In this document: positions 33,050 to 64,000 of the stretch, one piece after another
How the letters are laid out: every line of letters begins with the position of its first letter
Numbering within the stretch: position 1 is the stretch's first letter
Virus record (IMG/VR): IMGVR_UViG_2852501635_000002
Location: 1-64,000 of that record
Length of the DNA: 64,000 nt
Direction: 5' to 3' (one strand)
Source of the DNA: a virus
Taxonomy: Duplodnaviria > Caudoviricetes
Notes under the pieces: model-generated
Seen by the model: the letters and a program-made list of their open reading frames with translations, nothing else
Told to the model about the DNA's origin: nothing
Databases searched by the model: none
Position numbers and translations under genes: made by a program

Positions 33050-33421
33050 ATGGGAGTAAAAGTAAGGGGTATTTCTCAAGCTAATGCAAACCTTAGAGCA
33101 CTTGTTGGTGACATACAAGGTAAGAAAGTGATGAGAGCTATTCAGTCAGCTTTGTTGATTGGTAGTGAGCTATCATTCTTATACACGCCGATTGGTGACA
33201 CATCAACCCTGATAAACTCACAATTCAGAGAGGTCAAGATTAACGGAACATTAGTTACTGGCAGGGTTGGTTACTCCGCTAACTATGCAGTTTACGTTCA
33301 TGATCCTAGAGTTAAGCAAAAATTCAGACGCTCAACGGCAAAGAAAGAGTTTCTAAAATTGTCCTTCGAGGAGGCGAGAGCTGATATAGACAGAGCACTT
33401 AAACGGGAGCTTCAAATATGA
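33050..33421 (+). CDS. Tail completion protein (HK97 gp10-like)
   Basis: TPIGDTSTL; YAVYVH. Confidence 0.7.
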   Translation: MGVKVRGISQANANLRALVGDIQGKKVMRAIQSALLIGSELSFLYTPIGDTSTLINSQFREVKINGTLVTGRVGYSANYAVYVHDPRVKQKFRRSTAKKEFLKLSFEEARADIDRALKRELQI

Positions 33422-39622: not shown

Positions 39623-39648
39623 TAAATCAACATTGAGGTAGCGGTGCC

Positions 39649-40262: not shown

Positions 40263-43200
40263 ATGGCACAAGTAGGCGAAATTGTTTATCAAGTTCAAAT
40301 GGATGTTCGGCAATTGCTTGCATCGCAACAGCAGTTAGAGCAACGCCTTAATCGTATGGATAGTAGCTTTAACCGAACGTCTCAGTCAGTAAATAACACA
40401 GAGCGTTCAATGCAGTCTCTATCCAAAGTTGCGGCTGCTCTAACTGGTTATTTATCGGTTTCAATGGTTGCTAGTTATTCAGAGGCATGGACTGAATTAA
40501 ACAACAAGCTATCTAACTCAGTTCGCGCAAGTGAGTCACTTATTGATGTCACTCAACGAGTATTTGATATCTCTCAAGCAACGCGATCTAGCCTCGATGC
40601 CACAGCAACACTCTATGCGCGACTTGAACGAGGAACGAGAGAATACAACACATCAGCGGAAGACTTAGCAAAATTAACATCCATCATCAACCAAGGTTTT
40701 ATCGTTTCTGGTGCTACTGCACAGGAAGCAGAAAACGCAATTATTCAGTTATCACAGGGTATCGCTTCTGGTGTTCTCCGTGGTGAAGAATTTAATTCAG
40801 TAGCAGAACAGGGTAGTCGCTTAATGGTTGCATTGGCTGATTCACTAGGAGTAAGTATAGGTCAGCTTCGTAAAATGGCAGCAGAAGGCAAGTTGACCAC
40901 TGATGTTGTTGTAAAAGGGTTATTGTCTCAGGGGGATGCTATTGGTAAAGAGTTCGCTAAAACCACTCGAACAATGTCGCAGGCATTTCAAGAAGCAGGG
41001 AATAACTTAACTAAGTTCCTTGGTGAGAATACAACAATAAAGGCATCTATTAACGTATTCAGCGATGCTGTAATTACTGCAAGTAAGAGTCTCGATGAAA
41101 TGGTTTTAGCGGTTAGTCTAGTTGCCTCCGTTGTTGGCGGTAGATACATTGCCGCAATGGGGTTGGCTATCAAAGCTAAAATGCAATCAGCAGTTGCAGC
41201 AAGGCAAGAAGCGATAGCAAACCTTCAAGCTGCTAGAGTAGCTGAACACAATGCAATAATGACGGCAAGAAAGACCGCTTTAGATTTAGCAGCAGCCAGA
41301 GCGTTAGTTGAGAAAGCGAAAACTGAATTTGCGGCCGCAAGAGGAACAAACGCAGAAGCAACCGCGCTGGCAAATTTAATTGCCGTTAGATCTGCCGCAA
41401 CAACCGCGGCGATAAATCATAAGCAAGCAACGCAAGCGCAGACAGCAGCAATGGCTAACTCAGCCGCAGCAGCAAGAGCCGCTTCTGTATCTATCGGTTT
41501 AGCTAATAAAGCTCTAGGTTTTGTTGGTGGCCCAGCAGGTATAGCAATGGCCGCGGGTGCTGCGATCATGTATTTCTACCAGCAGGCAAAAGAAGCAAGA
41601 GAAGAAGCAGTAAAACTTGCAGAGGGAGTAAATCAATTAACTGCTGAAATGAAAAACATGACAAGGGAACAAAAGAGGGCTGAATCTGCCAAGTTAAAAG
41701 AAGCGCTCCCTGAGTTAAAAAATGAAGTTCTAAACACCACTGTCGCTATGAAGCAAGCTGCGGAAAAAGTAAGAGAATTAGAGGCTGATTTGGCTTTAGC
41801 TAAAGTTGGAACAAGTAAATATGAATCCATAACAAAACAGCTAGCCGATGCTCAAGATAAGTTAGCAATTGCAACTGACAACGCAACAAAGGCGTCAAAT
41901 AACTACAGTCGCACAAAAAATACCATATCTTTTATTCAAGCTGATCTTAATGGTGAGTTAAAAGAGGGAATTGATTTACTAAAAAGGGAAATATCTGTTC
42001 TACCAAGTGGCGCAAAGGGATGGGATTCTTATGGTTTTTCTATTGATAGGGCGCTGCAAAAAAAGAAAGAGTTTAATGGTGAAAAAATATCTTTCGAATG
42101 GTCTAAGGAGGGGATGGATTTAAGAAAATCACTAGAGCGTGAAATGAAGCTAGCTAACGCCAAAAGTGAAGTTGATAAGAGATTATTGCAAGTTGATTTT
42201 TACATTGAAGATAAAGGGATAACAGACGAAAGGGAAATATATCAACTAAAGCAAATAGCAATAGCAACTCAAAAAGCTCAAGATGCAGCCGCTGAGCGTA
42301 ACAAAACAACCAAGGAATCAACCAAAGCCACAGATGCTGCTTATGAAGCACTAAAGCGCCAGAGAGAAGAAATTGAGCTTTTAAACAAAGGTTACAAAGA
42401 CGGATCTCTTGAAATGGCTAAGTATGATGCAGTTAAGGCGTTGGGTGATACGGCATCCCCTAAGCAGATTGAAAAAGCGGAGCAGCTCGCAGAAGAAAAA
42501 TACAACATTGAACGTAATCTAGCAGATAAGAAAGCCGCGCTTGAGCTTGATTTGGTTGCTAAAGCTAAGGAATCTCACGATAAGCAGTTGGCAGACTTAG
42601 AGCGGATAACAAAAGATGATGTATCTCTAACTGAACAGGCAGCAAGGCGTAAAGCTGAAATTGAGGCGGAATATCAGCAAAAGATAGCTGAAATAAAGGC
42701 TAATAACGCTGTATCACCGCAAGATGACATCAAAGGGAAAGTAGATCCTGTTCAGCAACTCAAAAACGAACACGAGCGTAAACTTGCACTTATTCGTGAG
42801 TTTGAAACAGAAAAAGGCGCTATTACTCAGCGTGGCTTAGAGTTAATGAATGCTGCTAATACTCAATATGAGCAAGCTAGAACTGATGCTATGTATGAGC
42901 TTTGGAGAAATCAATCATTAGGAAACGAAGCTGCCGCGGCTGCACTAGATGCATTCTCTGGTAGCGCATCAAATGCACTTACAGGAATAATCACTGGATC
43001 AATGGAGGCTTCTGACGCATTAAGATCAATTGGTAATACAGTTTTGAATAGCCTAATTAACACCTTTGTTCAGGCTGGAATTGAGCAAGCTAAAGCTGCT
43101 TGGTTTGGCGCAGCAGCACAGCAAAGCGCCATTGCAGCAACAACGGCGGTGCAAACGGCTGCTATCGGAACGCAAACGGCAGTGAGCACGGCAGCAGCTG

Positions 43201-43655
43201 CCACAACAACAGCCGCTTGGACACCTGCGGCAATTATGGCATCAATCGCGTCAATGGGGACAGCGGCGAAAATAGGTTTAGCCGCAATCGCTGTACTTGG
43301 CGTTGGTGCAATTGCTGGTGCTCGTAAAAATGGCGGCCCTGTTGACGCTGGTTCAATGTATCGAGTTGGTGAGGGCGGTAAACCTGAGATATTTAAGGCT
43401 AACAACGGCCGACAATACATGATACCCGGTGACAATGGAAAGGTTATTTCTAATAAAGATATGCAGGGTGGTGGTATGAATGTGAATGTTGTCTTTAATG
43501 ACTATTCATCTGGTGGCCACAAGTTTGATGCACAGGCATCACAAGATGGAAATACGCTAACTATTCAGGCGTTCATTATGGATATGGATAACAAAGGCCC
43601 TATGCTTCAATCCATCACAAGAAACACATCGGCAACAGCGAGAGCAAGAGGTTGA
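40263..43655 (+). CDS. Tape measure protein
   Basis: 1130 aa; QLSQGIASGVLRGEEFNSV; GGPV...YRVGEGGKPE. Confidence 0.95.
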   Translation: MAQVGEIVYQVQMDVRQLLASQQQLEQRLNRMDSSFNRTSQSVNNTERSMQSLSKVAAALTGYLSVSMVASYSEAWTELNNKLSNSVRASESLIDVTQRVFDISQATRSSLDATATLYARLERGTREYNTSAEDLAKLTSIINQGFIVSGATAQEAENAIIQLSQGIASGVLRGEEFNSVAEQGSRLMVALADSLGVSIGQLRKMAAEGKLTTDVVVKGLLSQGDAIGKEFAKTTRTMSQAFQEAGNNLTKFLGENTTIKASINVFSDAVITASKSLDEMVLAVSLVASVVGGRYIAAMGLAIKAKMQSAVAARQEAIANLQAARVAEHNAIMTARKTALDLAAARALVEKAKTEFAAARGTNAEATALANLIAVRSAATTAAINHKQATQAQTAAMANSAAAARAASVSIGLANKALGFVGGPAGIAMAAGAAIMYFYQQAKEAREEAVKLAEGVNQLTAEMKNMTREQKRAESAKLKEALPELKNEVLNTTVAMKQAAEKVRELEADLALAKVGTSKYESITKQLADAQDKLAIATDNATKASNNYSRTKNTISFIQADLNGELKEGIDLLKREISVLPSGAKGWDSYGFSIDRALQKKKEFNGEKISFEWSKEGMDLRKSLEREMKLANAKSEVDKRLLQVDFYIEDKGITDEREIYQLKQIAIATQKAQDAAAERNKTTKESTKATDAAYEALKRQREEIELLNKGYKDGSLEMAKYDAVKALGDTASPKQIEKAEQLAEEKYNIERNLADKKAALELDLVAKAKESHDKQLADLERITKDDVSLTEQAARRKAEIEAEYQQKIAEIKANNAVSPQDDIKGKVDPVQQLKNEHERKLALIREFETEKGAITQRGLELMNAANTQYEQARTDAMYELWRNQSLGNEAAAAALDAFSGSASNALTGIITGSMEASDALRSIGNTVLNSLINTFVQAGIEQAKAAWFGAAAQQSAIAATTAVQTAAIGTQTAVSTAAAATTTAAWTPAAIMASIASMGTAAKIGLAAIAVLGVGAIAGARKNGGPVDAGSMYRVGEGGKPEIFKANNGRQYMIPGDNGKVISNKDMQGGGMNVNVVFNDYSSGGHKFDAQASQDGNTLTIQAFIMDMDNKGPMLQSITRNTSATARARG

Positions 43656-43658
43656 TAT

Positions 43659-44135
43659 ATGGTTATTGATTACCCTGATTGGCTTCCTCTGGCACAGAAA
43701 GCCGATAAAAGCATGACGCTAGATACTGGCTTCTTGACAGATCAACCACAGGTAGGCGCACCGATATTTCAGAAGCTAACTGATGACTTAAAAACTGTAT
43801 GGAGTGTGAATTGGATATTTACACTTCAACAGGAGCGTGCGTTTGCCCAATGGTTGCGAAGTCCTAACTATCTTGATAATTGCAATCGCTGGTTCAAGAT
43901 GAAAATTAATCTTGGTGGTAGTGGACTGCAGGAGCAGGAATTACATTTTGTTTCCTATCCAGTGCAAACCAGTATTAATGGATCTTCTGTAACATGGACT
44001 GGTCAAGTCATTAGTAAGAAACTTTATAATTCAGATGATGAATTCGACGATATTATCGTTGAGTTTCCGCCATCATTTGGAAGTTGGCTTGATATTATCG
44101 TTACTGAGACTCTACCTAAGTATAAGGAGTTGTAA
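43659..44135 (+). CDS. Distal tail protein
   Basis: Position after TMP. Confidence 0.7.
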   Translation: MVIDYPDWLPLAQKADKSMTLDTGFLTDQPQVGAPIFQKLTDDLKTVWSVNWIFTLQQERAFAQWLRSPNYLDNCNRWFKMKINLGGSGLQEQELHFVSYPVQTSINGSSVTWTGQVISKKLYNSDDEFDDIIVEFPPSFGSWLDIIVTETLPKYKEL

Positions 44136-44605
44136 TGCCTACACTAAGAGAGTATCGGGCACAAAGGCCAAACAGAATACTTTATGAGACACTGCAATTT
44201 AGTCATCCGTCATTTGGTGATATCTATCTTGTTTCTTATCAAATATTCCCAAAGGTTCTAGGTGGGGTTGAATATCAGCCGTGTAATTTCGAACTATCTG
44301 ACAGCCAGCAAAGCAGAACTCCCATCATCGACGCTAGTGTTAAATTCAGCCGTGTCGCACAAGACTTTAAACAGAAACTTAAACTATGGAAATCGTTCAA
44401 TAGAATGACACCCATAGAGGCCACTTATCGCTTATTTGATGAGAAAGACAAAGGTACGGCCATTACTCGATGGAAATTATTTGTGAAAGATGTGTCGATG
44501 GATCATGAAAGTGTCACTGTCACGCTATCTATGAGTAACCCATTGAATAAAAATATCGGACGCATTTATGAGCCACAAGAATGGCCTGGCTTGGAGGCTG
44601 TATGA
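44135..44605 (+). CDS. Minor tail protein (DUF1833-like)
   Basis: TLQFSHP; WPGL C-terminus. Confidence 0.7.
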   Translation: MPTLREYRAQRPNRILYETLQFSHPSFGDIYLVSYQIFPKVLGGVEYQPCNFELSDSQQSRTPIIDASVKFSRVAQDFKQKLKLWKSFNRMTPIEATYRLFDEKDKGTAITRWKLFVKDVSMDHESVTVTLSMSNPLNKNIGRIYEPQEWPGLEAV

Positions 44606-44994
44606 CAACTCAGGATTTCATCGATAAAACTATCGGTAAACCATGGAAAAACAGGTCTTGTACATTTGATGCTATGGATTGTTGGGGTCTCGTCGTTCTC
44701 TATTATCGTCACGCTCTAGGCATTGAGATCCACCATGACGCAGGCTATGAGTCGGAAACTGATTTTGTGACTTGCTATAAAAATGAAGTTGAGTTTTGGG
44801 AGAAAGTAAATCAACCAGAAAATAACGGAATATTTATAGGTTATATAGGCTCAAAACCCGCTCACATTGGCTTGATTATCGATGGTAACGCATTACATAG
44901 TCGAGGTGAAAACGGCTCTGTGAGAATGGATAGGTTGATTGTGCTCGAGAGAAAATTCACTAAGTTGGAGTTTATGAAATATGCCAATAATTGA
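44602..44994 (+). CDS. NlpC/P60 tail-tip protein
   Basis: DCWGLV; HIG; LHS. Confidence 0.85.
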   Translation: MTTQDFIDKTIGKPWKNRSCTFDAMDCWGLVVLYYRHALGIEIHHDAGYESETDFVTCYKNEVEFWEKVNQPENNGIFIGYIGSKPAHIGLIIDGNALHSRGENGSVRMDRLIVLERKFTKLEFMKYANN

Positions 44995-47449
44995 AATTCA
45001 GCGTGTCGCTGGAATACCGAAAGAGAGAGTCGAGATAAAAGCCGGCTCTCTTTTTTTTGATTGGTTAAAAGAGCAAAATTTTCATCATGACGTTGATATC
45101 TATGTTAACGGCGTAAAGCTTAACGACGATGATCACCTTGACTTTATTATTAGTGAATTTCATCACATTCAAATATTTGACCAACCGAAAGGGATTATTG
45201 GCGATATTCTTAATCCAGTATTTAAGTTTGTTTCCAAGATATTTTCATTCTTAGCTCCCAAGGCACCATCATTTAGCGCCGCTGATGTGAATGCAAAGGA
45301 AAGCCCTAATAATCGATTAACAGGTCAAACTAATATAGCGAGAACATATCAAGCCAGACCTGAAATTCACGGACAAGTGAGAGCCTTCCCAGATCTCATT
45401 CAGCAATCAATGTTTGAATACATAGACAATAAAAAGATGGTTACTGAATGGATGAACTTTGGCATCGGTTACTACACGATTGAGAATGTGAAATATTCAG
45501 AGTCTGAGCTGATCGCCCTTGATGGTGCCAGTTATCAGATATTCCAACCAGGTGAAGTGATCCCACAGATATTCGAGGGGTTTGAGTTCCCTGATGTTGA
45601 CGGACAAGAAATACCGGGCCCGAATGAAAGTGACGAAATTCCACAATATAAGGCTACTGCTAACAATGTTATTTCTGGTGAAATTAAAGGTGGTGAGGCG
45701 GCCATAAAGATAGAGAAACAAGATGAGTTTCGATATTTTATGGATATCGTAAAGCCTAGATCAGTAAGCCTTGTTGTTAATGTGACTTATGATACTCCGC
45801 AGGGTTCGGTTACAAAGGATATTAAGGTTGATGCTTATCTATCTGATGCGAAAGAAAGTGATGATGGCGCTATTATTTCACCAAAATATTACTATGAATT
45901 CTTTTTCACTAATTTAACTGGTGGTGATTTGGCAACTCTACCGCCTAATGCAATAGTCAACACATCAAAGTTTATTCTCTATGACAACCAATTCCTGACA
46001 GTAGGGCCTTTCTTCTCTCCACTTGATGGTGGTGAGTTATGGGTGCATTTAAATGCCCAACTTGGTGATGGCGATTATGCTAATGCAAGAATTGAATTCT
46101 GGAAAGTTGATGAGAATAACAATGAAGTAGCTGGAACAAGAGAGTCATTCAATAGAGGGTTTCCATCTGCACCAAAAACAAAAACATACTATCTGACGGA
46201 AAAATTCAAGCCGTTAGCTGGATATGGAAGATATGCGCTTCAACTAACTAGATTAGAAAACAGTAATGAACACAGCATTCTTAAGCTAGAGGAAGTCTTT
46301 ATTGTTAGAGAGAGAATTAACGAAGTACATGAAGAAGATACACTTGTTAAGGTAGCAGTGAGGGCAACAGAGGCACCAACGGGAACAAGAGAGCGTAAAT
46401 ACAACGCACTGGCTACACGTCATGTTATTAGTTACGACATGAATAGCCGTAGCGTTGATTATACATTAAGACCATCACGATCATTTGCTGATGCGGTCGC
46501 TCACACTTGGCTAGTTACCGCAGGGCAGCCAGAAAGCACCATAGATTTATATGGTTTGTATTCAATCTATGAATCACTTCCAGATAAGCGCTTAGGATAT
46601 TTTGATTACACGTTTGATGATGAAGATGTATCACTGGGTCAGCGTATAGAAACAATATGCAACGTTGCTCGTGTTATTTCATTTTGGGATAACGGCGTGC
46701 TTACATTTACTCGTGAGGAGGAAAAGAAATATCCATCTGGTACATTTAACAGGGCTAACACGACAGGAAATGGATTCTCGCTGTCTTATGATATGACAAT
46801 GCCGAGTGGTAATGATGGTGTTGAAATTGAATATGTAAACCCTAAAACCAACAAAAAGACCTACCTTAAATATCGTATTGAAGATAACAAAATAGTTAAC
46901 AAGCCAGCTAAGAACCCTAACAAAATAACCATTCACGGTTGTCGTAATGAGTATCAGGCGACAGATAGGGCGCTATTAGAAATGGATAGGTTAATACATC
47001 AGCGCATGAGTATCAGTGTGCAAACTCTCGCAGATGGTGATTATGTTTATCCTGGTGACTTAATTATTGTTGCTGACACATACGATAAGAATCAACAGGC
47101 AGGTTATATAGTTGAGAGGATCGGAAATCAATTTTCAACAAATGAAAAAGTTTTCTTTGATGGTGAGATGTTTGTTTGTATTACTGATCATTTAGGTAAT
47201 ACGACGGAAAGGTTTAAGGCTACACCAAGAATCGATACCGCTTACGGATTTATCGCTGATATACCTGACATCCAGATAAACATCTATGACGGTATGAATA
47301 TTCAATCCCCGTCACGTTACGTTATATCCAATATCGTTGAAATGGACTCAATGAGATGGATTGTAAGCGACAAAAAGCCTAATTCGGACGGAACTTATAG
47401 CATTACAGCAAGTGAGTATTTTTCTGCAAAGAAAGATTACAACGTTTAA
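44981..47449 (+). CDS. Central tail fibre/tip protein (TipJ-like)
   Basis: 822 aa; N.AR...ARPEIHGQVRAFPDL; position. Confidence 0.85.
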   Translation: MPIIEIQRVAGIPKERVEIKAGSLFFDWLKEQNFHHDVDIYVNGVKLNDDDHLDFIISEFHHIQIFDQPKGIIGDILNPVFKFVSKIFSFLAPKAPSFSAADVNAKESPNNRLTGQTNIARTYQARPEIHGQVRAFPDLIQQSMFEYIDNKKMVTEWMNFGIGYYTIENVKYSESELIALDGASYQIFQPGEVIPQIFEGFEFPDVDGQEIPGPNESDEIPQYKATANNVISGEIKGGEAAIKIEKQDEFRYFMDIVKPRSVSLVVNVTYDTPQGSVTKDIKVDAYLSDAKESDDGAIISPKYYYEFFFTNLTGGDLATLPPNAIVNTSKFILYDNQFLTVGPFFSPLDGGELWVHLNAQLGDGDYANARIEFWKVDENNNEVAGTRESFNRGFPSAPKTKTYYLTEKFKPLAGYGRYALQLTRLENSNEHSILKLEEVFIVRERINEVHEEDTLVKVAVRATEAPTGTRERKYNALATRHVISYDMNSRSVDYTLRPSRSFADAVAHTWLVTAGQPESTIDLYGLYSIYESLPDKRLGYFDYTFDDEDVSLGQRIETICNVARVISFWDNGVLTFTREEEKKYPSGTFNRANTTGNGFSLSYDMTMPSGNDGVEIEYVNPKTNKKTYLKYRIEDNKIVNKPAKNPNKITIHGCRNEYQATDRALLEMDRLIHQRMSISVQTLADGDYVYPGDLIIVADTYDKNQQAGYIVERIGNQFSTNEKVFFDGEMFVCITDHLGNTTERFKATPRIDTAYGFIADIPDIQINIYDGMNIQSPSRYVISNIVEMDSMRWIVSDKKPNSDGTYSITASEYFSAKKDYNV

Positions 47450-50265: not shown

Positions 50266-50310
50266 CTTCTAAGCCGTAGGTCACAGGTTCGAATCCTGTA
50301 GGGCGTACCA
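50266..50310 (+). repeat. att core: 3' half of tRNA-Arg(UCU); prophage attR and probable satellite left boundary
   Basis: CTTCTAA anticodon loop, GGTTCGAATCC T-arm, CCA end; no D-arm or 5' acceptor strand. Confidence 0.88.
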
Positions 50311-50475: not shown

Positions 50476-51687
50476 ATGAAGCTAACAGCCAGACAAGTAG
50501 AGACTTCCAAGCCAAAAGAGAAAGCTTATAAACTTTCTGACGGAGGGGGCATGTATTTAGAAGTTGCTCCGAATGGTTCTAAGTATTGGCGTATGAAATA
50601 TAGATATGCTGGTAAAGAGAAAAGGCTGGCTTTAGGTGTATACCCATCAATATCACTCGCACAAGCTAGGGCGAAGAGAGAAGAAGCCAAGCGCATATTA
50701 GCGTTAGGTGATGATCCATCTTTAGTGAAGAAAGCAGAAAAGAGAGAGAAAGAATCTCAAGTAAATAATAGCTTTGAAAAAATTACGCTTGAATGGCATG
50801 ACTATAAAAAGCCGAATTGGTCAAAAGGTTATGCGGATGATTTACTAGAAGCCTTCCAGAAAGATATCTTTCCTTATATTGGTAAAGTTAGCATTACAGA
50901 AATTAAACCGTTAGATATGTTAGAAGTGCTTCGGAAGTTAGAAAAACGCGGTGTGTTGGATAAGCTTAAAAAGATAAGGCAGGCATGTAACCAAGTATTC
51001 CGCTATGCAATTGTGACAGGACGGGCTGAGTATAATCCCGCATCAGAATTAGCCGGCGCACTGTCTACTCCAAAAGCTAAGCATTTTCCTCACTTAAATG
51101 TGAATGAGTTACCTGAGTTTTTACAGGCACTATCTGTATGTAGTGGAAGTAAGATCACTCAGATTGCGACAAAGCTATTAATGATAACAGGCGTTCGTAC
51201 TATTGAGCTTAGAGCTGCTGAATGGTCAGAAATTGATTTTGATAAAGCTATTTGGGAAATTCCAAAAGAACGTATGAAAATGCGTCGCCCTCACATGGTG
51301 CCATTATCTACACAGGCCTTAGAATTATTCAAAGAAATACAAACCATAACAGGAAAGTTTAAGTATATCTTTCATGGTAGGAATGATGCTTCTAAACCAA
51401 TGAGTGAAGCGGCCATAAATCAGGTTATCAAGCGTATTGGTTATGATGGTAGAGCCACAGGTCACGGATTCAGACATACAATGAGCACCATCCTGCACGA
51501 ACAAGGCTATAACACTGCATGGATTGAGACTCAACTTGCACACGTTGATAAAAACTCTATTCGTGGAACGTATAACCATGCTCAGTATATTGATGGCCGT
51601 AGAGAAATGCTTCAATGGTACGCTGATTATATGGATACTTTAGAGAGCGGGGATAATGTTGTCCACGGTAACTTTAAACGTGCTTAA
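50476..51687 (+). CDS. int: P4/IntA-family tyrosine integrase
   Basis: YKLSDGGGMYL; LALGVYP; HGFRH; QLAH; YNHA. Confidence 0.95.
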   Translation: MKLTARQVETSKPKEKAYKLSDGGGMYLEVAPNGSKYWRMKYRYAGKEKRLALGVYPSISLAQARAKREEAKRILALGDDPSLVKKAEKREKESQVNNSFEKITLEWHDYKKPNWSKGYADDLLEAFQKDIFPYIGKVSITEIKPLDMLEVLRKLEKRGVLDKLKKIRQACNQVFRYAIVTGRAEYNPASELAGALSTPKAKHFPHLNVNELPEFLQALSVCSGSKITQIATKLLMITGVRTIELRAAEWSEIDFDKAIWEIPKERMKMRRPHMVPLSTQALELFKEIQTITGKFKYIFHGRNDASKPMSEAAINQVIKRIGYDGRATGHGFRHTMSTILHEQGYNTAWIETQLAHVDKNSIRGTYNHAQYIDGRREMLQWYADYMDTLESGDNVVHGNFKRA

Positions 51688-52802: not shown

Positions 52803-52832
52803 AACCTTATACATTTATGTATAGGGTTTTTT
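52803..52832 (+). terminator. Terminator-like hairpin just upstream of alpA
   Basis: AACCTTATACA-TTTA-TGTATAGGGTT followed by TTTT. Confidence 0.55.
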
Positions 52833-52867
52833 CGCATGTCTTTTCATATCACATTAAGGAAAATACT

Positions 52868-53065
52868 ATGAATAATCTGATTAGGCTTTCAGAGGTTTTG
52901 CGACGCACAGGTTACAGCAAAGCTTGGATTTATAGACTAATTAAAGAAAATGACTTTCCTAAACAAGTCAAAATAGGAGCTCGTTCTATTGCTTTTGTTG
53001 AATCAGAAGTAGATGAATGGATTGCTAATAAGATTGCTGAATCACGTTCTGGTGAGGTGGCATAA
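52868..53065 (+). CDS. alpA: AlpA family regulator
   Basis: LIRLSEVLRRTGYSKAWIY...FPKQVKIG...ESEVDEWI. Confidence 0.95.
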   Translation: MNNLIRLSEVLRRTGYSKAWIYRLIKENDFPKQVKIGARSIAFVESEVDEWIANKIAESRSGEVA

Positions 53066-53472: not shown

Positions 53473-54306
53473 ATGAAACTAAAAAATAACAGCTTAAATG
53501 CTGGTGGATTCGCTCACCCTGAAAACCACTCTAGCGATATTAAGGAATTATCTTTTGCTGAAATGCTGCCAGTAATTCAGGGAAATATTAACGGGCAGAT
53601 TATTAATGCAGTAAGTGCCAAAGCATTACACGAAGCATTAAGTGTAGGTCGTGATTTTTCTACTTGGATTATTGGCCGTGTTAATGAATACGCTTTTGTG
53701 GAAGGAACGGATTATCAATCAGATGATGACTTTAATATTCGCTGCTTACTTAATGAACAATATTCCCCCGTTTTGGGGAATAATACAAAACGTGGTCGCC
53801 CTGAAAAGGATTACTTATTAACGCTAGGCATGGCTAAAGAATTGGCAATGGTTGAACGTACCGAAAAAGGGCGCTTAATCCGGCAATACTTTATCAAGTG
53901 TGAGGAAGCTCTACACAAAGTCGCGCCAACAATCACTAAGCAGTTACGGCATCAACTTAAATCACGCCTCAAAGTGGCTAGTTACTTTAAGCCGATGTGT
54001 TCAGCGTTAGAGCTAGCACGTATGGAGCAAGGCAAAAGCACACTACCGCACCACTACACAACTGAGTCAAACATGCTTAACCGAATTGTGTTAGGTGGAC
54101 TCACTGCCAAAGCATGGGCGAAGCAGAACGGCATTATTGGCAATCCCCGTGATGCTATGAGCGAAACCCAATTAGAGCACCTTTCATACCTTGAGCAGAC
54201 GAATACAACGCTAATTGAATTAGGCATGGACTATCACGCACGCAAGGACAAGTTAATCAGTCTATCTCAAAAGTGGTTAGCGCAACGTGTAGAGGTGGCG
54301 CAATGA
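53473..54306 (+). CDS. AntA/AntB-domain antirepressor-like protein
   Basis: VSAKALHEAL..GRDFSTWI; MAKELAMVE...IRQYFI. Confidence 0.85.
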   Translation: MKLKNNSLNAGGFAHPENHSSDIKELSFAEMLPVIQGNINGQIINAVSAKALHEALSVGRDFSTWIIGRVNEYAFVEGTDYQSDDDFNIRCLLNEQYSPVLGNNTKRGRPEKDYLLTLGMAKELAMVERTEKGRLIRQYFIKCEEALHKVAPTITKQLRHQLKSRLKVASYFKPMCSALELARMEQGKSTLPHHYTTESNMLNRIVLGGLTAKAWAKQNGIIGNPRDAMSETQLEHLSYLEQTNTTLIELGMDYHARKDKLISLSQKWLAQRVEVAQ

Positions 54307-55028
54307 TTACCCTATGTTCAATAAAGGATATTGCCTACCAAGTGAATAATTCTCTACTGGCAGGTAATAACGTAAGTTCAACTTACACCACGACTAATAC
54401 GGTAGCTTTAAACTATGGTATTACGGGCAGTCAATCAGCGAAAATTTACGCCAATCAATCAATCCTAACCACCGTTGGAGGATGGGATAACAGCGATAAC
54501 CTAAAACGTGGAGAATTTACACCATTTATTAAAGGTGATTTTTCTCACCTTTCTAAAGTCGGGAAATCTCGCTATTTATCGAGTGAAATTGAGTTTTTAC
54601 AGTCCATAAAAAAGGGCGGCCAATCGGCTACCCTTGGGAACGTCGATATTAAATACCGAGCAAGTGAGAACTATAAGAATAGTATTCATCTTGTTATCGG
54701 TAAAGATGACAACCTTGAGTTAATACAAAAATGTGCAATACATCACTTGCACTTATGGGTAATTGTTGGCTATAGTGATCAGGCACTAGCAAAATCTAGT
54801 GTCAGGATTGGCGTTCTGAATTTGTACAAGGCGACACATGACGCGCCTAGCGTCTTTTTTTGTGTCAATGCCTACGCACACCTATTAAATGCGGTATTAT
54901 ATCGCACCGAATCTATGGTGGCGGCAGCAGAGCAACCGAAAGGTTGGCTGGTTTCCTTGTACGCCAGTAACGCCAACTCTACTGTCGTCACCACCCCGAA
55001 ATTGGCGTTTCTGGTGGTGACTCCTTAG
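54303..55028 (+). CDS. Ash-family ORF overlapping the C4 RNA module
   Basis: APSVFF...SMVAAAEQPKGW pattern; may not be a real protein. Confidence 0.45.
   Translation: MITLCSIKDIAYQVNNSLLAGNNVSSTYTTTNTVALNYGITGSQSAKIYANQSILTTVGGWDNSDNLKRGEFTPFIKGDFSHLSKVGKSRYLSSEIEFLQSIKKGGQSATLGNVDIKYRASENYKNSIHLVIGKDDNLELIQKCAIHHLHLWVIVGYSDQALAKSSVRIGVLNLYKATHDAPSVFFCVNAYAHLLNAVLYRTESMVAAAEQPKGWLVSLYASNANSTVVTTPKLAFLVVTP
54915..54994 (+). ncRNA. c4: C4/P4-CI-like antisense RNA
   Basis: CCTTGTAC and AACGCCAA are complementary to GTACAAGG and TTGGCGTT, found both upstream (54808, 54824) and downstream (55002, 55033); promoter TTGCAC-18-TATAGT. Confidence 0.8.
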
Positions 55029-55845: not shown

Positions 55846-56051
55846 AAACAATCAAATTAAATGTTGGTCACTTATCTACCTTGGAAGAAGTCGAACACAT
55901 CAACGAAGAACTTCAAGCGTTGTTAATCCCGCTGTTAACAGCTGTAGAGAATGAAGCTGAGACGGATACGCATTTTATGCTGAGAGCAGTCAACCGCTTA
56001 GTGTGTGCTCAAGGAAAAGAAATCACAAAGTTGGTGGAGGTGATGAAATGA
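55842..56051 (+). CDS. Hypothetical protein
   Basis: Coupled ORF. Confidence 0.7.
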   Translation: MKTIKLNVGHLSTLEEVEHINEELQALLIPLLTAVENEAETDTHFMLRAVNRLVCAQGKEITKLVEVMK

Positions 56052-56659
56052 GACAAGTCACTATCAATGCCACCAGCTTAAGTCCATTCATGTATCAAGG
56101 TAAGCGAGTTGTCACCTTTGCCATGATTGACGAGGTACACCAACGCCCAACAGGTGCGGCTAGAAAATCATTCAATGCTCACCGTCAATATTTTACTGAG
56201 GGTAAGGATTTTTACCGCCTAACTGGACAGGATTTAGAACTGTTTAAACTTTGCGCGTCCATAAAACGGACGCACAAATATTCACCCATTAGTGATAAAG
56301 CCCGAGAAGTAACACTGATTACTGAATCGGGATACTTGCTAACCGTGAAGCCATTTAATGATCCACTTTCTTGGCAGGTACAAAACCAGCTTATCGATGC
56401 ATATTTTCGACTGTCTGAATTCCCTGAATTACAGCACATCAACATACCCACACTGGCAGAACTTGAAGCCATGCCAATTGGTGAGGCTCAGAACTTGATT
56501 AGCCGCTTAGAGGCTGATTCTTATCAAGGGCACGGTAGGCGTGGCAGCTATGCCATGAACCTACGTCGCAAAGAGAAGAAAGCACTTAAACCAATGGTAA
56601 TCGCCATTGAGCAAGCCTCGCAGCTACACATTCAGGATATGGGAGATTATCGCTCATGA
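56048..56659 (+). CDS. ORF6N-domain protein
   Basis: RVVTFAMIDEVHQRP; FTEGKDFY; LITESGY. Confidence 0.85.
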   Translation: MRQVTINATSLSPFMYQGKRVVTFAMIDEVHQRPTGAARKSFNAHRQYFTEGKDFYRLTGQDLELFKLCASIKRTHKYSPISDKAREVTLITESGYLLTVKPFNDPLSWQVQNQLIDAYFRLSEFPELQHINIPTLAELEAMPIGEAQNLISRLEADSYQGHGRRGSYAMNLRRKEKKALKPMVIAIEQASQLHIQDMGDYRS

Positions 56660-57633: not shown

Positions 57634-57978
57634 ATGATAACGAAGAATTTTAAAGTTAATTCACTAGCGAATAGCTACGCAGCTGCTATTTACCACGATA
57701 TTACCACACGTAATGGCGGTGATTGGTTTTCGATGAAGGTAGGCAACAAAACGATTGAAGTTGCCATTATTGACGGTGTGAAAGGTATTCGAATGCTCGT
57801 TGATAGCTATTTGCTGAAAGCCTTAAAAGGGCAATATCCCACATGGGAGGCAGTTGCTATTGGCTTGATAGAGCAATGTGTCATTAATGGATATGTCACA
57901 GGTTATGGTCGAGAGGTGTGGCAAAGCATGATTAATGATATGGGCGACTCTTTCGCTGATAAGGGGGCGTTTCAATGA
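57634..57978 (+). CDS. Hypothetical protein upstream of the primase
   Basis: Coupled ORF. Confidence 0.7.
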   Translation: MITKNFKVNSLANSYAAAIYHDITTRNGGDWFSMKVGNKTIEVAIIDGVKGIRMLVDSYLLKALKGQYPTWEAVAIGLIEQCVINGYVTGYGREVWQSMINDMGDSFADKGAFQ

Positions 57979-60695
57979 AGCCGATTGATGTTATCCGTGA
58001 GGTGAAGCTGAAAGCTAACGGACAATGGCAAGCTATATTATCTCACCTTGGGGCAGAAGTGCCCCTAAACACGCACACGGCTTGCCCTCATTGTGGTGGT
58101 AAAGACCGGTTTAGATTTGATAACAAGGACGGTAATGGCACGTTTATTTGTAATCAGTGCGGTTCTGGTGATGGATTAGATCTCGTTCAGCGTGTGTTAG
58201 GTGTCAGTGTAACCGAAGCTGCAAAAGAAGTTGCTAACATAATTGGTATTGATACCCGTTCAGCGTGTCCACCAGCCTACCGTCGTTCTGAGATAAAAGC
58301 ACAACAAGACGAACTGAAAGCGCAGCAAGCCGAAAAACAAGCTAACGAGAAGAGAGAGAAGCATAAACGCTTTATTGAACGGTATAACCGCACTATTGCC
58401 AATGTTCAACGTGGGAGATCTGACTATCTCAAGGCTAAGGGGCTGCATGGTTTTGAAATGGATTTATTACAGGACGGTTCTCTTATCATTCCATTATTGG
58501 ACGCTGGTGGCGTTATTACTGGCGCACAAACTATTAAGCCTAATGGTGATAAGCGTTTGCTGTCAGATAGCGCAAAGTCAGGCAGTTATTACCCCATCAA
58601 TGAGCCTGTAAACGTCTCTACGGTGATTATCGCTGAAGGATTAGCAACCGCCCTAACGTGTCACTTAATCCAACCAGAAGCGCACACAGTTGCGGCAATT
58701 GATGCGGGAAACCTCATTCATGTAGCTAAGGTAATGCGAGTTAAGTATCCAGAGAGCAAGATTATTATTGCTGGGGATAACGATATTAAGCCAGGCCAAG
58801 ACAATACAGGGAAATTAGCGGCAGAAAAGGCAGCTAAGGTGGTTAATGGTGTCGCTGTTTTACCCCCTACTGATGATAAAGCCGATTGGGATGACTACCG
58901 CCTATCACACGGTATTGATGCGGCAAGACAGGCATTTAATGAAATATTAGAGCAGCAAGGAGGCAAGGTGATGATAGAAACTAGGGTAAGCAATGAAGTC
59001 GTTAAACCTGACCCAATGAAGCCACGCATTGAATCACGTAAAGAGGGGGTATTTCTTGTTACACCGAAAGCCGACAAGGAAACAGGGGAAATCATCAATC
59101 ATGAGCAGTGGTTATCAAATGCTATCAAGCGGATCACTAAAGGTGTTAATGACCTCAATCAAGAGTATTTGATTATTGAGTGGGGGAATAACAATGTTCA
59201 GGCAATACCGACAGGCGATATAGGAGAGCGTGAAGGATGGCGCACATTAAAAAACGCGGGGTTATTTGTCACTACCAAATCAGGATTAAGACAGTCGTTT
59301 TCTGATTGGCTGTTACGTCAACCATTCAAAGAGGACTGGAGTATTACGAATAAATCAGGTTGGCACAAAGGCGCATATATCATGCCCGATGGTTCAATTA
59401 TCGGCACACCTGAACAACCGATATTTTTTAACGGACAAAGCGCAGCAGCAACTGCCTACAAAGCAAGTGGAACGGTGGAAAGCTGGCGAAATGATGTAGC
59501 GCGATTGGCTAACGGTAATAGTTTTATGATGTTTACGATTGGCGCCGCATTATCTGCACCGATGACGAGTCTTACGGGGGCTGACAGCTTTGGTATTCAC
59601 ATTTACGCTCAATCGACAGCAGGGAAAAGTACCACGGCAGATATGGCCGTGAGTTTATACGGTGATCCTGATTTACAGCGCTTAACATGGTATGGCACTG
59701 AATACGGTATGACTAACGAAGCTGTAGCGCACAATGACGGACTTTTGTATTTGGATGAAGTCGGACAAGGGGCAGACCCTAAACACGTCTACAAATCGGC
59801 TTACACGCTGTTTAATGGTAAAGGTAAGATCCAAGGTGCGAAGGAGGGCGGCAATAGGCAAGTTCAAAGCTGGCGGACAGTGGCCATTAGTACAGGAGAA
59901 AAGGATATTGAGACCTTTTTATTAAGTTCGGGTGTGAAAGTCAATGCAGGGCAGCTAGTACGATTACTCAACATCCCTATTGAACGCGCCACTGAACTAC
60001 ATGAATGTGAAACAGGGAAAGCCCACGCAGATTTAATTAAGATAAATTGCCGTTCTAGCTATGGGGCCGCAGGACGTTATTGGATTGAATATCTATCAAA
60101 TCATAAAGATGAAGCTAAAGAAGCCTATAGAACTGCACAACAACGCTGGAGTAAATTAATTCCGAGCAGTTACGGAGAACAAGTTCATCGAGCCAGTGAT
60201 CGATTCGCTACTATAGAAGCGGCTTTGATAATGGGCCGTGTGATTACTGGCTGGAATGAACAAGATTGTAAGGATGCTGTTCAAGCCGCGTTTAACGCTT
60301 GGATTGCTGAGTTCGGCACAGGTAATAAAGAGATTGAACAGATTAAAGATCAGACGATCGCTTTTTTAAGTACGTATGGAATGAGTCGATTTGCTCCATT
60401 GCCTTATGATGAGCAATCTTTACCTATCAGAGAACTTGCAGGGTACAGAGTTAAATCAAACACGCAGGATGAAGCGCCCATATTATTTTATACATTGCCA
60501 ACAGTATTTAAGAACGAGATAGCCAAAACGTTCAATACGGACACTTTCGCTGATGCCCTGCATAAACTAGGTATTTTAAAAAAGCCTTCCAATGGGAAAG
60601 GATATCAAGGCAGAACACCGCGTTTGAAACATTTAGGCAACATTCAGCAACGCGCCTATATTTTGATGCTTGTTCCTGATGAAGAGGAGGAGTGA
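57975..60695 (+). CDS. Primase-helicase (Zn ribbon, TOPRIM, DUF927)
   Basis: CPHCGGKDRFRFD; IAEGLATA; AGDND; STAGKST; LDEVG; STGE. Confidence 0.92.
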   Translation: MKPIDVIREVKLKANGQWQAILSHLGAEVPLNTHTACPHCGGKDRFRFDNKDGNGTFICNQCGSGDGLDLVQRVLGVSVTEAAKEVANIIGIDTRSACPPAYRRSEIKAQQDELKAQQAEKQANEKREKHKRFIERYNRTIANVQRGRSDYLKAKGLHGFEMDLLQDGSLIIPLLDAGGVITGAQTIKPNGDKRLLSDSAKSGSYYPINEPVNVSTVIIAEGLATALTCHLIQPEAHTVAAIDAGNLIHVAKVMRVKYPESKIIIAGDNDIKPGQDNTGKLAAEKAAKVVNGVAVLPPTDDKADWDDYRLSHGIDAARQAFNEILEQQGGKVMIETRVSNEVVKPDPMKPRIESRKEGVFLVTPKADKETGEIINHEQWLSNAIKRITKGVNDLNQEYLIIEWGNNNVQAIPTGDIGEREGWRTLKNAGLFVTTKSGLRQSFSDWLLRQPFKEDWSITNKSGWHKGAYIMPDGSIIGTPEQPIFFNGQSAAATAYKASGTVESWRNDVARLANGNSFMMFTIGAALSAPMTSLTGADSFGIHIYAQSTAGKSTTADMAVSLYGDPDLQRLTWYGTEYGMTNEAVAHNDGLLYLDEVGQGADPKHVYKSAYTLFNGKGKIQGAKEGGNRQVQSWRTVAISTGEKDIETFLLSSGVKVNAGQLVRLLNIPIERATELHECETGKAHADLIKINCRSSYGAAGRYWIEYLSNHKDEAKEAYRTAQQRWSKLIPSSYGEQVHRASDRFATIEAALIMGRVITGWNEQDCKDAVQAAFNAWIAEFGTGNKEIEQIKDQTIAFLSTYGMSRFAPLPYDEQSLPIRELAGYRVKSNTQDEAPILFYTLPTVFKNEIAKTFNTDTFADALHKLGILKKPSNGKGYQGRTPRLKHLGNIQQRAYILMLVPDEEEE

Positions 60696-61679: not shown

Positions 61680-62192
61680 ATGAAAAAAATCATGATAACG
61701 GCTCTATTGGCTTTATTTTTATCGGGATGTGATAACAACCCGCCAGCACCCTACGGGTTTAAGTGGGGGCAGACTGTGGCGGATATACAAAAATTAAATA
61801 TTGCTGGCGCTAGCGAGTGCAAAGACCCAGCTTGCTCTATTATGGTAACACCTAGCGGAGCACATGGATTAACAACATTAATTTTCTATAAAGATTCAGG
61901 ATTGGCACAAGTGGTACACTCAGAGCCACTGAACGAAACCAACAAAGATGATGTAATGGCAAGGTTTAATCATATTAGTAATGAGTTGAAATCAATTTAT
62001 GGTAATCCAACCAGTGAAATAATACGTATTGATGATGAGAATAACTTTATTGACTGTTTAAAACAAATTAGCTGTAGAGATATCAAGGCAGAATATAACA
62101 AAGATGGTTATCGGGCATTTATCTCAATAGGAACGAGAAAAAAAGACGGGAGATTATTCATTTTCACCGATCACCAAAGACCTCTAAAATAA
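61680..62192 (+). CDS. Lipoprotein
   Basis: LSGC lipobox; own terminator at about 62204-62228. Confidence 0.85.
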   Translation: MKKIMITALLALFLSGCDNNPPAPYGFKWGQTVADIQKLNIAGASECKDPACSIMVTPSGAHGLTTLIFYKDSGLAQVVHSEPLNETNKDDVMARFNHISNELKSIYGNPTSEIIRIDDENNFIDCLKQISCRDIKAEYNKDGYRAFISIGTRKKDGRLFIFTDHQRPLK

Positions 62193-62363
62193 GCTATACA
62201 AACAAGCCGACCTTGAGTCGGTTTTTTGTTCTTATAGCCCCTATCATATTAATTTTTATAGAAATCTCCCTGTTTTATAGTCGTTTGTATTAATCAATTA
62301 TTGATTATTTTTTAATCCATTATATAATTGTATTGTATATAATTACAGGTTGGATAAATAAAC

Positions 62364-62537
62364 ATGAGTAAGCAAAAAAGAACCTTCAAGCCAGTGTCAA
62401 TTGATAGTGAAATAATAGAACGCGTCAAAAAGTTTAAAGAAAAACAGGGTGAAAAAGATTTTTTCATTCAACGAGCACCTATTAGTCAATTAATTCAAGG
62501 GTTACTAATTAATGCCTTACATAACGAGGGATTCTAA
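62364..62537 (+). CDS. 57-aa possible ribbon-helix-helix protein
   Basis: Manual translation MSKQKRTFKPVSIDSEIIERVKKF...; stop overlaps the next ATG. Confidence 0.6.
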   Translation: MSKQKRTFKPVSIDSEIIERVKKFKEKQGEKDFFIQRAPISQLIQGLLINALHNEGF

Positions 62538-62878
62538 TGGAAAAATTACAACGGTTAGCAAGCACTATAGCCCAGATTTATGTTGATAATTTAAAAGCTG
62601 AAACAGGAGAAACATTAGTAACTTATAACGGTATCACAGGTAAAGTTACCCCTGAATTACTGGCCGCTGGATTGTTTGATAATGCGGTATTTGCGGTTAA
62701 AGCGGATGGAGAAGAGATTGACGTTGAAGGTAAGGCGTATGATTTACTATCCCCGTTAATTAACTTATCAACAAAGCCTTACTCCCTAACGGGACAGGCA
62801 TATAAATTGATTAATTTTCTCAATGTGCAGGCACTAAAAGCAGGAAGCACTTTATCAACCTTATCAGTTGTACATTAA
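62537..62878 (+). CDS. Hypothetical protein upstream of the TMP-like gene
   Basis: 113-aa coupled ORF. Confidence 0.7.
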   Translation: MEKLQRLASTIAQIYVDNLKAETGETLVTYNGITGKVTPELLAAGLFDNAVFAVKADGEEIDVEGKAYDLLSPLINLSTKPYSLTGQAYKLINFLNVQALKAGSTLSTLSVVH

Positions 62879-62894: not shown

Positions 62895-64000
62895 ATGTAT
62901 CATGGCGAAGGTTACACAGTATATGTAGATGCCGATACGGCCGGCCTTCTTGAGGCTAACCGTGAAATCGAAAAAGCAAGAAGAAAAATAAATGATTTAG
63001 GCAACGAAGCAAACACCACAAGCAAATCATTTACTCAATTCAATAAATCAGCAATCGCGGTTTCCAGTGCGTTAAAAATGCCTGAAATAAACCGCTTATC
63101 ACGTCAAATGAGTGAATTGGCGGGGCAAATTGGCGCTGCTTCAATGGCAACAGATAAGGCAACGACTGTTAACGCGCGTTTTACAGGTGTGATTAGCAAT
63201 GTGTCTGGGCTACTAGGGGCGGGATATGTTTCTAATATTGGTAGCGCTACTGTTTCGCTCTTGCAACATACTCAAGGGGCAATTAATGCCACACAAGCCG
63301 AGGTTTTACATACTCGCGCTATTCAAATGAAGGCTCAGGCATTGCAAGCTGCTGCCTCCCAAGAAGTGATTAACGCCAAAAATCTTAAAGCATCAACACA
63401 AGCAGAGCTAAAAGCAGCTCAGGCAGCGTTAGAACACGTTTATTCATTAGAAGGCTCTAATGATATCAAGCAGCGTAATTTAGAGTCACTTAGGGCACGA
63501 CAGGCAGCAGTGCTCAAGGATGCTGAAATAACTTATCAAATGACTGCGAGTGAAGAAAATTTGCAGCGAGTGACTAAAGCCAGTAATGCGCTACATGCTA
63601 CGGAAACTAAAATAAAAACGCATTTAGCTACAACCGGAAAAGAAATTGCGCTTGTTGAGGCTAGAGTCGCTAAAGCAAAAGAAGCAGAAACACTAGCAAC
63701 TCAAAAATTAAATGCGGCATTAGCATTAGAGCAAAAAGCGAAAGCCACACTAGCCACTACAACAGACGCGGTGACCGTAGCTAATGGTCGCGCAGCCCAA
63801 GCGGCTAGAAGTCAATCCATTGCTATGCAAGGATTGCGAGGTGTTGTGGGGTTATTAGGTGGCCCAACGGGTGTTTTTATGTTGGCTACTGCTGGCGTGT
63901 ATGCGCTATATAACGCGATGAATGATGACACCGCAACGAAAGAGTTTAATGACAGAGTAGATCAGTGGATTGATAAAATTGACGAACTGTCAGCCAAACA
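62895..64000 (+). CDS. Tape-measure-like protein (5' part; open to the window end)
   Basis: 368 codons without a stop; GGGAGA RBS; Ala-rich helical; GLLGGPTGVFMLATAGVYALY resembles the prophage TMP segment GFVGGPAGIAMAAGAAIMYFY. Confidence 0.75.
   Translation, partial: MYHGEGYTVYVDADTAGLLEANREIEKARRKINDLGNEANTTSKSFTQFNKSAIAVSSALKMPEINRLSRQMSELAGQIGAASMATDKATTVNARFTGVISNVSGLLGAGYVSNIGSATVSLLQHTQGAINATQAEVLHTRAIQMKAQALQAAASQEVINAKNLKASTQAELKAAQAALEHVYSLEGSNDIKQRNLESLRARQAAVLKDAEITYQMTASEENLQRVTKASNALHATETKIKTHLATTGKEIALVEARVAKAKEAETLATQKLNAALALEQKAKATLATTTDAVTVANGRAAQAARSQSIAMQGLRGVVGLLGGPTGVFMLATAGVYALYNAMNDDTATKEFNDRVDQWIDKIDELSAK

Follow-up and report, generated by a model that had tools for sequence, protein, structure and literature searches.

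An integrative island related to P4 and to phage-inducible chromosomal islands (PICIs) carries a genuine, intact gene for a tail tape measure protein (TMP), which is under purifying selection and is a conserved, selected core gene of the P4/PICI-like family to which the island belongs. The island lies at the end of a stretch of viral DNA of 64,000 nucleotides (Duplodnaviria; Caudoviricetes), hereafter the window, which comprises bases 1-64000 of the 73,492-bp IMG/VR provirus record IMGVR_UViG_2852501635_000002 and is occupied from position 1 to about 50,000 by a complete siphovirus-type prophage of the Proteus/Providencia kind; the part downstream was taken from record positions 60000-73492. 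Comparison of this TMP with those of phages and other islands, together with the analogy to known satellites, suggests that the island probably acts as a satellite that builds hybrid tails from the parts of a helper phage, with its own TMP inside.

The gene lies on the plus strand and occupies 62895..64000 of the window. An earlier reading of the window, made by a model from the letters and their open reading frames (ORFs) and called here the sequence-only reading, had reported an open frame of at least 368 codons at this place, and that frame is real. It opens at a TTG at 62868, has its probable start at the ATG at 62895, eight bases past the motif AGGGAG and beyond the stop of the preceding gene at 62878, and leaves the window to stop at record position 66125, giving a product of 1085 aa (counted from the TTG) or 1076 aa (from the ATG). 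The tape measure identity proposed in the same reading, against which a missing profile match had been named beforehand as evidence, is borne out by matches to six PHROG families labelled as tail length tape measure protein, the best being phrog_1107 (E 2.7e-131, residues 200-1081), followed by phrog_1538 (2.4e-70) and phrog_339 (6e-28). No Pfam family was matched and NCBIfam gave only a sub-threshold, unrelated match, none of TMP_3, TMP_2 and HK97_TLTM being found. Since a bona fide prophage TMP from Proteus myxofaciens (L007) likewise has no Pfam or NCBIfam TMP domain, the missing curated domain is no argument against membership of the TMPs. The L007 locus is a complete tailed prophage with head, neck, major tail and tip genes, and its TMP (1066 aa) is 57% identical to the island protein over 1081 aa. 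The length of the island TMP, 1076 aa, compares with 1066-1130 aa in related phage TMPs, and pairwise dN/dS among four island TMPs is 0.13-0.24 (four comparisons), falling to 0.09-0.16 over the N-terminal 380 codons. By its homology, the protein would be placed in the tail lumen and would set the length of the tail. The gene does not stand between tail chaperone and tail-tip genes, being flanked instead by an island-specific gene, p113, and by a homologue of the neck gene gp10/Neck1.

With regard to the adjacent prophage, whose TMP (1130 aa) is encoded on the plus strand at 40263..43655, the sequence-only reading had described parallels at the N-terminus. These exist but are weak: Smith-Waterman scores exceeded those of all 300 composition shuffles, a lenient control for coiled-coil-like sequence (z = 6.1 for the N-terminal 120 aa and z = 7.8 for the GGPxG/hydrophobic segment), whereas BLASTP returned no N-terminal alignment at E<=10. 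That reading was right that the GVLRGEEFNSV segment of the prophage protein is absent from the island TMP. The segment corresponds to Pfam TMP_3, found at residues 69-255 of the prophage TMP and also in four more distant island TMPs, and absent from the present island lineage, from the island L028 and from L007. Because L007, a real prophage TMP, lacks TMP_3 too, its absence is not specific to satellites; by these comparisons it goes back to a phage TMP of the L007 type and does not mark a decoy.

Conservation, operon and mosaic structure

A TMP scan of one genome per species returned seven loci, four of which are islands (in Proteus myxofaciens, two Providencia sp. and Providencia huashanensis), while the other three (L007-L009) are ordinary prophage tail regions. 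All four islands are syntenic from a gene for a 131-aa protein via the primase, a lipoprotein, p57, p113, the TMP and gp10 to a gene resembling that of single-stranded DNA-binding protein (SSB). Two of them are bounded by repeats. In G002, 28-nt direct repeats at both ends delimit about 22 kb, with a different integrase (29% identity) and with the attachment (att) repeat about 380 bp past the SSB-like gene; in the Providencia huashanensis island (G004), 24-nt and 29-nt repeats delimit about 26.6 kb. In the complete G002 island no other virion family was recognised among the ORFs scanned, namely those that it does not share with the present record. With p113 as the island marker, 401 genomes were sampled from the GTDB family to which P. 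myxofaciens belongs, and 10 of them carry the gene. The nine new p113 loci all have a primase homologue upstream (41-75% identity) and an ORF of the phrog_1107 family directly after p113; eight of these TMP ORFs are of full length (903-1245 aa). Overall, the p113-TMP pair occurs in 14 islands, with the TMP intact in 12.

The TMP belongs to a small predicted operon, consisting of p57, p113, TMP and gp10/Neck1 in this order behind a promoter of its own. Upstream of the first gene, at 62203..62348 on the plus strand, cross-island alignment places an intrinsic terminator followed by a promoter-like region (TATAAT) and a dyad resembling a LexA box (TTGT-N8-ACAG at about 62333-62348), immediately 5' of the p57 ribosome-binding site. 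Printed sequences read by eye show a dyad of the CTGTAT...CAG type at the same position in 12 of 13 islands; two of the 13 (L031 and L036) have the strict CTGT-N8-ACAG box, and most others are off by one base or spacer position. This is a hint of LexA/SOS control of the operon. The first gene, p57 (62364..62537, plus strand), encodes a small conserved protein, 45-96% identical in related islands and without a Pfam, PHROG or NCBIfam match, for which a role in DNA binding is only a guess from the sequence. The second, p113 (62537..62878, plus strand), is specific to the islands, always stands directly 5' of the TMP gene and falls into phrog_19131, a family of unknown function. Its identity across islands is 33-49%, a deep divergence, and its family is tiny, with six clusters in a word search and 27 representatives at E<=0.001 among 1.84 billion. 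An extension by frameshifting of the lambda G/GT kind is not possible for p113, because the TMP begins 17 nt past its stop. The fourth gene, the gp10/Neck1-like gene (record 66192-66560, plus strand; phrog_5, E 1.2e-11), encodes a protein that is 59% identical to that of prophage gene 33050-33421 and 80-98% identical among close islands. The sequence-only reading had stated that the island holds no other structural gene, which is correct within the window and does not hold directly downstream of it, where this gene lies; it is the only recognised virion gene besides the TMP in this island.

According to its sequence relationships, the island TMP is a mosaic of an island-specific part of about 630 residues and a last part of about 290 residues that tracks phage TMPs. 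Residues 1-630 are 64-94% identical among five close islands. When they are compared with five of six prophage TMPs, identity is at most 35% in any segment and 15-21% over residues 1-600, where only the sixth, that of the P. myxofaciens prophage L007, reaches 42%. The last ~290 residues differ between islands and follow phage TMPs: in P. myxofaciens ATCC 19692, which has both an island and a prophage of the L007/L008 type, this part of the island TMP is 93% identical to the TMP of that prophage (at the DNA level, 86% over 1.3 kb), and in the three Providencia islands it is nearest, at 54-56%, to the Providencia prophage L017. In the present island, the last 290 aa are 82% identical to L007, 86% to the Proteus vulgaris prophage L008 and 50% to the adjacent prophage, so that the closest counterparts are other Proteus prophages (82-86%) and not the TMP next door, with which the sequence-only reading had compared it. 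With the latter, alignment is confined to the C-terminal third (BLASTP, residues 631-1034 of the island TMP against 670-1076, 41.5% identity, E 4e-79), which is encoded past the end of the window and was thus outside the sequence-only reading, and where both proteins share the conserved motif GGPV...YRVGEGGKPE. A search of 50,697 deposited phage genomes found no genome that matches at least 80% of the island TMP; every match begins at residue 403 or later.

A stretch at record 65313-65342 (protein FETEKGAITQRGLELMNAANTQYEQ) is common to the island and prophage TMPs, and contigs from metatranscriptomes branch there between the two genes. Swaps of the C-terminus are likely to involve recombination at this stretch.

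Probable chimeric tails and the alternatives

In siphophages, the C-terminus of the TMP sits in the tip complex, as published structures show. By analogy with these structures, the mosaic pattern can be read as a C-terminal plug fitted to the helper on a body specific to the satellite. A helper siphophage of the Proteus L007/L008 type would multiply, and the island TMP would dock into the tail-tip initiator complex of this helper via its C-terminal ~290 residues, the part repeatedly traded with phage TMPs. Tails that hold the satellite TMP in place of that of the helper would then result from the island-specific N-terminal ~630 residues, possibly together with p113 and the island Neck1. This reading of the island TMP as a part of chimeric tails, which we consider probable, draws on the PLE satellites, since their TMPs are reported to be built into virions and to be needed for transduction.

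From the perspective of helper identity, sequence comparison makes a Proteus siphophage of the L007/L008 type a more likely helper than the neighbouring prophage. The latter is itself a mosaic: its neck and major tail genes (32707-35345) are 89-98% identical to those of L007/L008, and its tail-tip genes (43659-47449) resemble those of the Providencia prophages L016/L017 (64-76%) and not those of L007/L008. With the TMP C-terminus read as the tip-fitted part and only 50% identical between the two, the neighbouring prophage would suit the helper role only partly at best.

RNA libraries give a further view of the two TMP genes. In two wastewater metatranscriptome runs from one study, the contigs have a word depth of about 60-75 over the lipoprotein gene and onwards through gp10, in X16 already over the ProQ-like gene, and one of 3-8 over the 3' end of the primase gene. 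The contigs stop 27 bases past gp10, where a cargo variant starts, and their branch carries 30 bases identical to the TMP of the window prophage at 42774-42803, which points to both TMPs being present together in these wastewater RNA libraries. A pure-culture RNA library gave one flat contig, which carries no information on expression, and in run X23 no raw reads fell on this part of the island, so that this run is no test either.

Several observations weigh against chimeric tails. The word depth of contigs measures expression poorly, and carry-over of DNA into the RNA libraries is possible. The TMP is split in G004 and cut to a 210-aa fragment in L029, and Neck1 was detected in only six of the 14 islands (G000-G004 and L030). 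One near-identical island stands in a 60-kb IMG/VR record without a second phrog_1107 TMP beside it, and in the present record the adjacent prophage reaches only 50% identity to the C-terminus of the island TMP and has tail-tip genes of another type. Within the island, neither a cos or pac site nor a small terminase was found, and no tail assembly chaperone or hub was recognised. The box resembling that of LexA lacks the conserved first C in this island. Finally, p113 has no known fold: AlphaFold2 models (pLDDT 71 from six sequences and 88 from 23) gave no Foldseek match at E<=0.001 in PDB or BFVD, a wide VIA-align search gave a best Z of 6.0 to small helical domains, within the noise for helical models, and no usable match was obtained in the protein atlas; a tail-chaperone fold is thus no more than a possibility for p113. 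Concerning the G004 genome, its TMP is split into ORFs of 395 aa and 736 aa, and the queries used detected neither a prophage TMP nor a gp10 homologue elsewhere in it; the split may reflect decay without a helper or an error of assembly.

The mosaic pattern would also suit a poison subunit, with a C-terminus matched to the phage and a divergent N-terminus, and the sequence-only reading had offered a decoy beside chimeric tails. In a decoy or defence function, the island TMP would bind the tip complex of the helper, or of an invader, by its C-terminus, while its foreign N-terminal two thirds would poison polymerisation of the tube, leaving tailless phage and thereby protecting the bacterial population or biasing the burst. 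Interference with tail assembly is known in satellites and prophages, as reported for the Tai systems (PMC11364771) and for Rta of PLE11, and the island carries other defence cargo, namely Abi_2 and Beta_protein. A poison subunit does not easily account for a protein as long as a complete TMP (1076 aa, with 1066-1130 aa in related phages), for the homology along the whole length to a working prophage TMP (L007), or for the predicted co-transcription with a Neck1 homologue; in addition, a satellite that destroyed tails would block its own spread, and in the PLEs, as far as the published account goes, the satellite TMP is structural and blocking is performed by the separate protein Rta. We regard a decoy as unlikely.

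A function outside island transfer altogether would make the TMP operon a captured, mobile tail-gene cassette, carried as cargo or as a spare part, for instance as raw material for recombination in resident phages. Exchange with phage TMPs is clear in the 3' third of the gene, and the whole module is swapped within close backbones, a TMP of the phrog_2276 type occupying the same slot in L054. Such a cassette is improbable, as the p113-TMP pair is kept over a deep divergence (33-49% in p113) with 12 of 14 TMPs intact and under purifying selection, and the operon has a predicted regulated promoter of its own. The idea that the gene is a remnant of a third, degraded prophage beside an unrelated primase island can claim that a gp10-like gene follows the TMP and that IMG/VR called the whole 73-kb stretch one provirus. 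It is contradicted by the recurrent synteny of the island, by the att repeats and by an intact, selected TMP, and is very improbable: the order from primase to SSB-like gene with the TMP in its centre recurs in four other genomes and is att-bounded in two, the ORFs scanned include no further gene for tail, head or lysis, a TMP followed by gp10 is not a phage gene order, and the ORF is intact with dN/dS of 0.13-0.24. A third, complete prophage, which the sequence-only reading had named as a finding that would speak against its proposal, does not appear downstream either, where the record shows only the continuation of a small island that lacks genes for capsid, terminase, portal and major tail proteins.

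Gene content of the island and of the adjacent prophage

The left end of the island is marked by a 3' fragment of a tRNA gene at 50270..50310, read by eye as T-arm and acceptor stem ending in CCA and taken as attL. ARAGORN found no whole tRNA in the window or in record 60000-73492, and a 29-mer of the attL region also adjoins the closest integrase homologue in G002. No direct repeat of at least 12 nt matching attL was found in record 66-73.5 kb; with no such repeat before 73492, the island is more than 23 kb long, is cut by the record boundary and has its right end beyond the record.

Rightwards from attL follow a tyrosine integrase gene (50476..51687, plus strand; Pfam Arm-DNA-bind_3, Phage_int_M and Phage_integrase; phrog_1, E 7e-76), a gene for a regulator or excisionase of the AlpA family (52817..53065, plus strand; PF05930, E 7e-21) and an AntA-like, antirepressor-like gene (53473-54306), recognised by profile searches as was the ORF6N antirepressor-like gene at 56003-56659. 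Between these two antirepressor-like genes, Rfam matches above the gathering score locate an isrK RNA (54783-54860, plus strand; RF01394, 65.7 bits) and a C4 antisense RNA (54911-54998, plus strand; RF01695, 71.2 bits), which by these matches make up a predicted RNA immunity module at 54783..54998. Both RNA genes nest in the ORF 54273-55028, the C-terminal part of which gives a match to the Pfam 'Ash protein family'; because of the overlap, the Ash match may partly reflect translated RNA genes. Two conserved proteins without known function are encoded between the ORF6N gene and the primase gene (57975..60695, plus strand), whose product of 906 aa combines Zn_Ribbon_Prim, Toprim_3 and DUF927 (phrog_1139, E 5e-159). 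A ProQ/FinO-like gene separates the primase gene from the lipoprotein gene.

The lipoprotein gene (61680..62192, plus strand; lipobox LSGC, no family match) occupies a variable slot for exported proteins 5' of the TMP operon. In all ten islands read by eye (G000 and L028-L036), an ORF for a lipoprotein or another exported protein, of varying family, lies 5' of the operon promoter. The adjacent prophage has two proteins, likewise judged by eye to be exported, directly 5' of its own TMP, a lipoprotein at 39212 and a membrane-anchored protein at 39649, both with homologues in four islands. As a lead, Ltp of TP-J34 is said to be a lipoprotein exclusion factor that targets a TMP.

Beyond gp10, the record continues with variable cargo at about 66600-69100, which comprises an Abi_2 gene at 66981-68021 (PF07751, E 2e-50) and a gene for a 223-aa protein of unknown function. 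Six IMG/VR records contain islands 93-99% identical in DNA, in which the 66.6-69.1 kb stretch is variable: the cargo of the Abi_2 region is replaced or absent in three of the six and partly present in L061, and it is also absent from G001-G004. Several small conserved genes then lead to the last core gene, the SSB-like gene (record 70962-71327, plus strand; PF00436, E 0.0019, below the cut-off), after which a profile scan identified a second AlpA-like gene (record 71639-71824) and Pfam a Beta_protein gene (PF14350) at record 72380-73492, which ends at the last base of the record. In G004, the stretch homologous to record 71639-73492 is followed by other cargo and, ahead of attR, by a truncated integrase-like ORF; the second AlpA-like and PF14350 genes may belong to another small element or to a cargo zone at the distal end. 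Among the island ORFs of at least 100 aa, Pfam and PHROG matched no capsid, portal, terminase, tail tube or lysis family.

The adjacent prophage has genes for a major capsid-type protein, for the neck, for a major tail protein (phrog_853) and for tail-tip and J-like proteins. Its gp10/Neck1-type neck gene (33050..33421, plus strand; phrog_5, E 7.5e-14), which is 98% identical to the L007 gene, sits between head-completion genes and the major tail gene, and a DUF6246 protein is encoded at 34656-35345 after the major tail gene. An insertion at 35400-40200, between the tail genes and the TMP, contains minus-strand genes, an Arc-like regulator and a weak HEPN-like protein besides the exported proteins mentioned above, and the usual G/GT chaperone pair was not recognised in this stretch. 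A blastn comparison of island and prophage, aimed at a packaging site, showed no common segment near the terminase genes. Two non-coding stretches of 75 bp and 44 bp, 22 bp apart in the prophage (20927-21067), past a terminator and downstream of gene 20161-20664, recur in the island at 96-100% identity (record 66921-66995 and 70609-70652), where they are separated, with the second one inverted, and flank the Abi_2 cargo region. They matched no Rfam family, and could represent a common regulatory element or the trace of an inversion or a cassette exchange.

Relation to known satellites and to other primase islands

To our knowledge, hybrid tails with a satellite's own tape measure have so far been demonstrated by experiment only in the satellites of a cholera phage. 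The PLE satellites of Vibrio cholerae encode a TMP, a chaperone and a baseplate hub of their own, with which chimeric tails are built on ICP1 parts, and the PLE TMP is reported to replace that of ICP1 in PLE virions and to be needed for transduction, whereas the separate protein Rta is described as the blocking factor (Nature 2026, PMC12987554). The chimeric tail suggested by the sequence-only reading is exactly this mechanism, as the paper presents it. Both families are satellites, the present one presumably so, that lack tail-tube and head genes and share a family-conserved TMP differing from that of the helper. They differ in the backbone, which is unrelated here (P4/PICI-like integrase, AlpA, C4 RNA and DUF927 primase), and in the helper, presumably a temperate siphophage here and a lytic myophage in the PLEs. 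In contrast to the PLE TMP, which is reported to be about 20% identical to that of ICP1, the C-terminal part of the TMP is here 82-93% identical to phage TMPs, and the reported partners, chaperone and hub, have p113 and a Neck1 homologue in their place.

Likeness to P4 is seen in the arm-binding integrase, AlpA, the antisense RNA of the C4 clan, the large primase and the cargo hotspot, and the PF14350 Beta_protein at the end of the record is presumably a match to P4's beta. Differences lie in the primase architecture (Zn-ribbon/Toprim/DUF927), the size of more than 23 kb, the TMP operon and the helper, which would not be P2-like. The core set of P4-like satellites consists of int, alpA, alpha, epsilon, sid, delta and psu. 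Because no PHROG or Pfam match to sid, delta or psu was found among the island ORFs scanned, the island is not filed as a strict P4-like element.

The island TMP resembles lambda gpH and HK97-type TMPs by profile and by full-length homology to siphophage TMPs, and the Neck1 homologue, 59% identical to the prophage neck gene, resembles lambda gpZ and HK97 gp10. Compared with the lambda and HK97 TMPs, the island gene stands outside any tail operon, lacks TMP_3 and has 630 N-terminal residues of an island-specific lineage. TMPs have also been reported in the EPIP satellites of Mycolicibacterium (bioRxiv 2025, PMC12822802), and the legend of Extended Data Fig. 10 in PMC12987554 mentions putative tmp genes in PLE-like elements and cf-PICIs. 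EPIPs and cf-PICIs are described as carrying capsid or packaging genes as well, of which none is recognisable in the present family; overlap between the reported elements and this family is possible. The literature searched (main texts, with partial coverage) contains no description of the present island family or of a slot for delivery proteins in P4-like elements.

Homologues of the island primase occur in 84 of the 401 genomes. For 20 high-scoring primases without p113, the 12 kb downstream were taken and one large ORF per locus was scanned. In ten of these loci the ORF encodes another type of TMP or lytic tail protein (four loci, L054 among them), a P22-type DNA-transfer protein (two), a phrog_1044 protein (two) or a baseplate hub (two), and the other ten comprise one large terminase and nine non-virion or unassigned ORFs; the baseplate hub genes (phrog_196) are found in two related islands. 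In L054 (G240:C1:3057842-3069850), genes for the ProQ-like, 139-aa, 62-aa and SSB-like proteins are 85-92% identical to those of the present island, and a 792-aa TMP of phrog_2276 with a transglycosylase region replaces the p57-p113-TMP-gp10 block. The sample of 20 loci thus supports in part the notion of one slot behind the primase that would hold varied delivery-type proteins.

Going further, and tentatively, the P4-related primase islands of enterobacteria may be a large superfamily with an exchangeable 'genome-delivery cassette' at one slot, which according to the morphotype of the helper would hold a tape measure, P22-type ejection proteins, internal-virion-type proteins or a baseplate hub. 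The satellite would in this way replace exactly those virion parts that open the envelope of the recipient, and in the present TMP lineage the C-terminus would be swapped to fit the helper tip while the N-terminal two thirds stayed satellite-specific. The purpose may be an entry of DNA that escapes the exported or lipoprotein exclusion factors encoded beside the TMP by islands and prophages, or the selective use of the satellite TMP by means of p113.

Before 2025-26, satellites were believed to take over entire tails, and it was the PLEs that revealed how a satellite can replace the tape measure with one of its own. The island suggests that the same strategy is used in a different and widespread satellite backbone of Enterobacterales with temperate siphophages as helpers. 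It also offers a structural clue to how a satellite TMP may be fitted and selected, a question left open in the PLE work as published: a C-terminus matched to the helper, an N-terminus specific to the satellite and the constant partner p113. If the slot behind the primase generally holds DNA-delivery proteins, the satellite itself may set its host range and its resistance to superinfection exclusion, which would be relevant to gene transfer in Proteus and Providencia and to the design of transducing particles.

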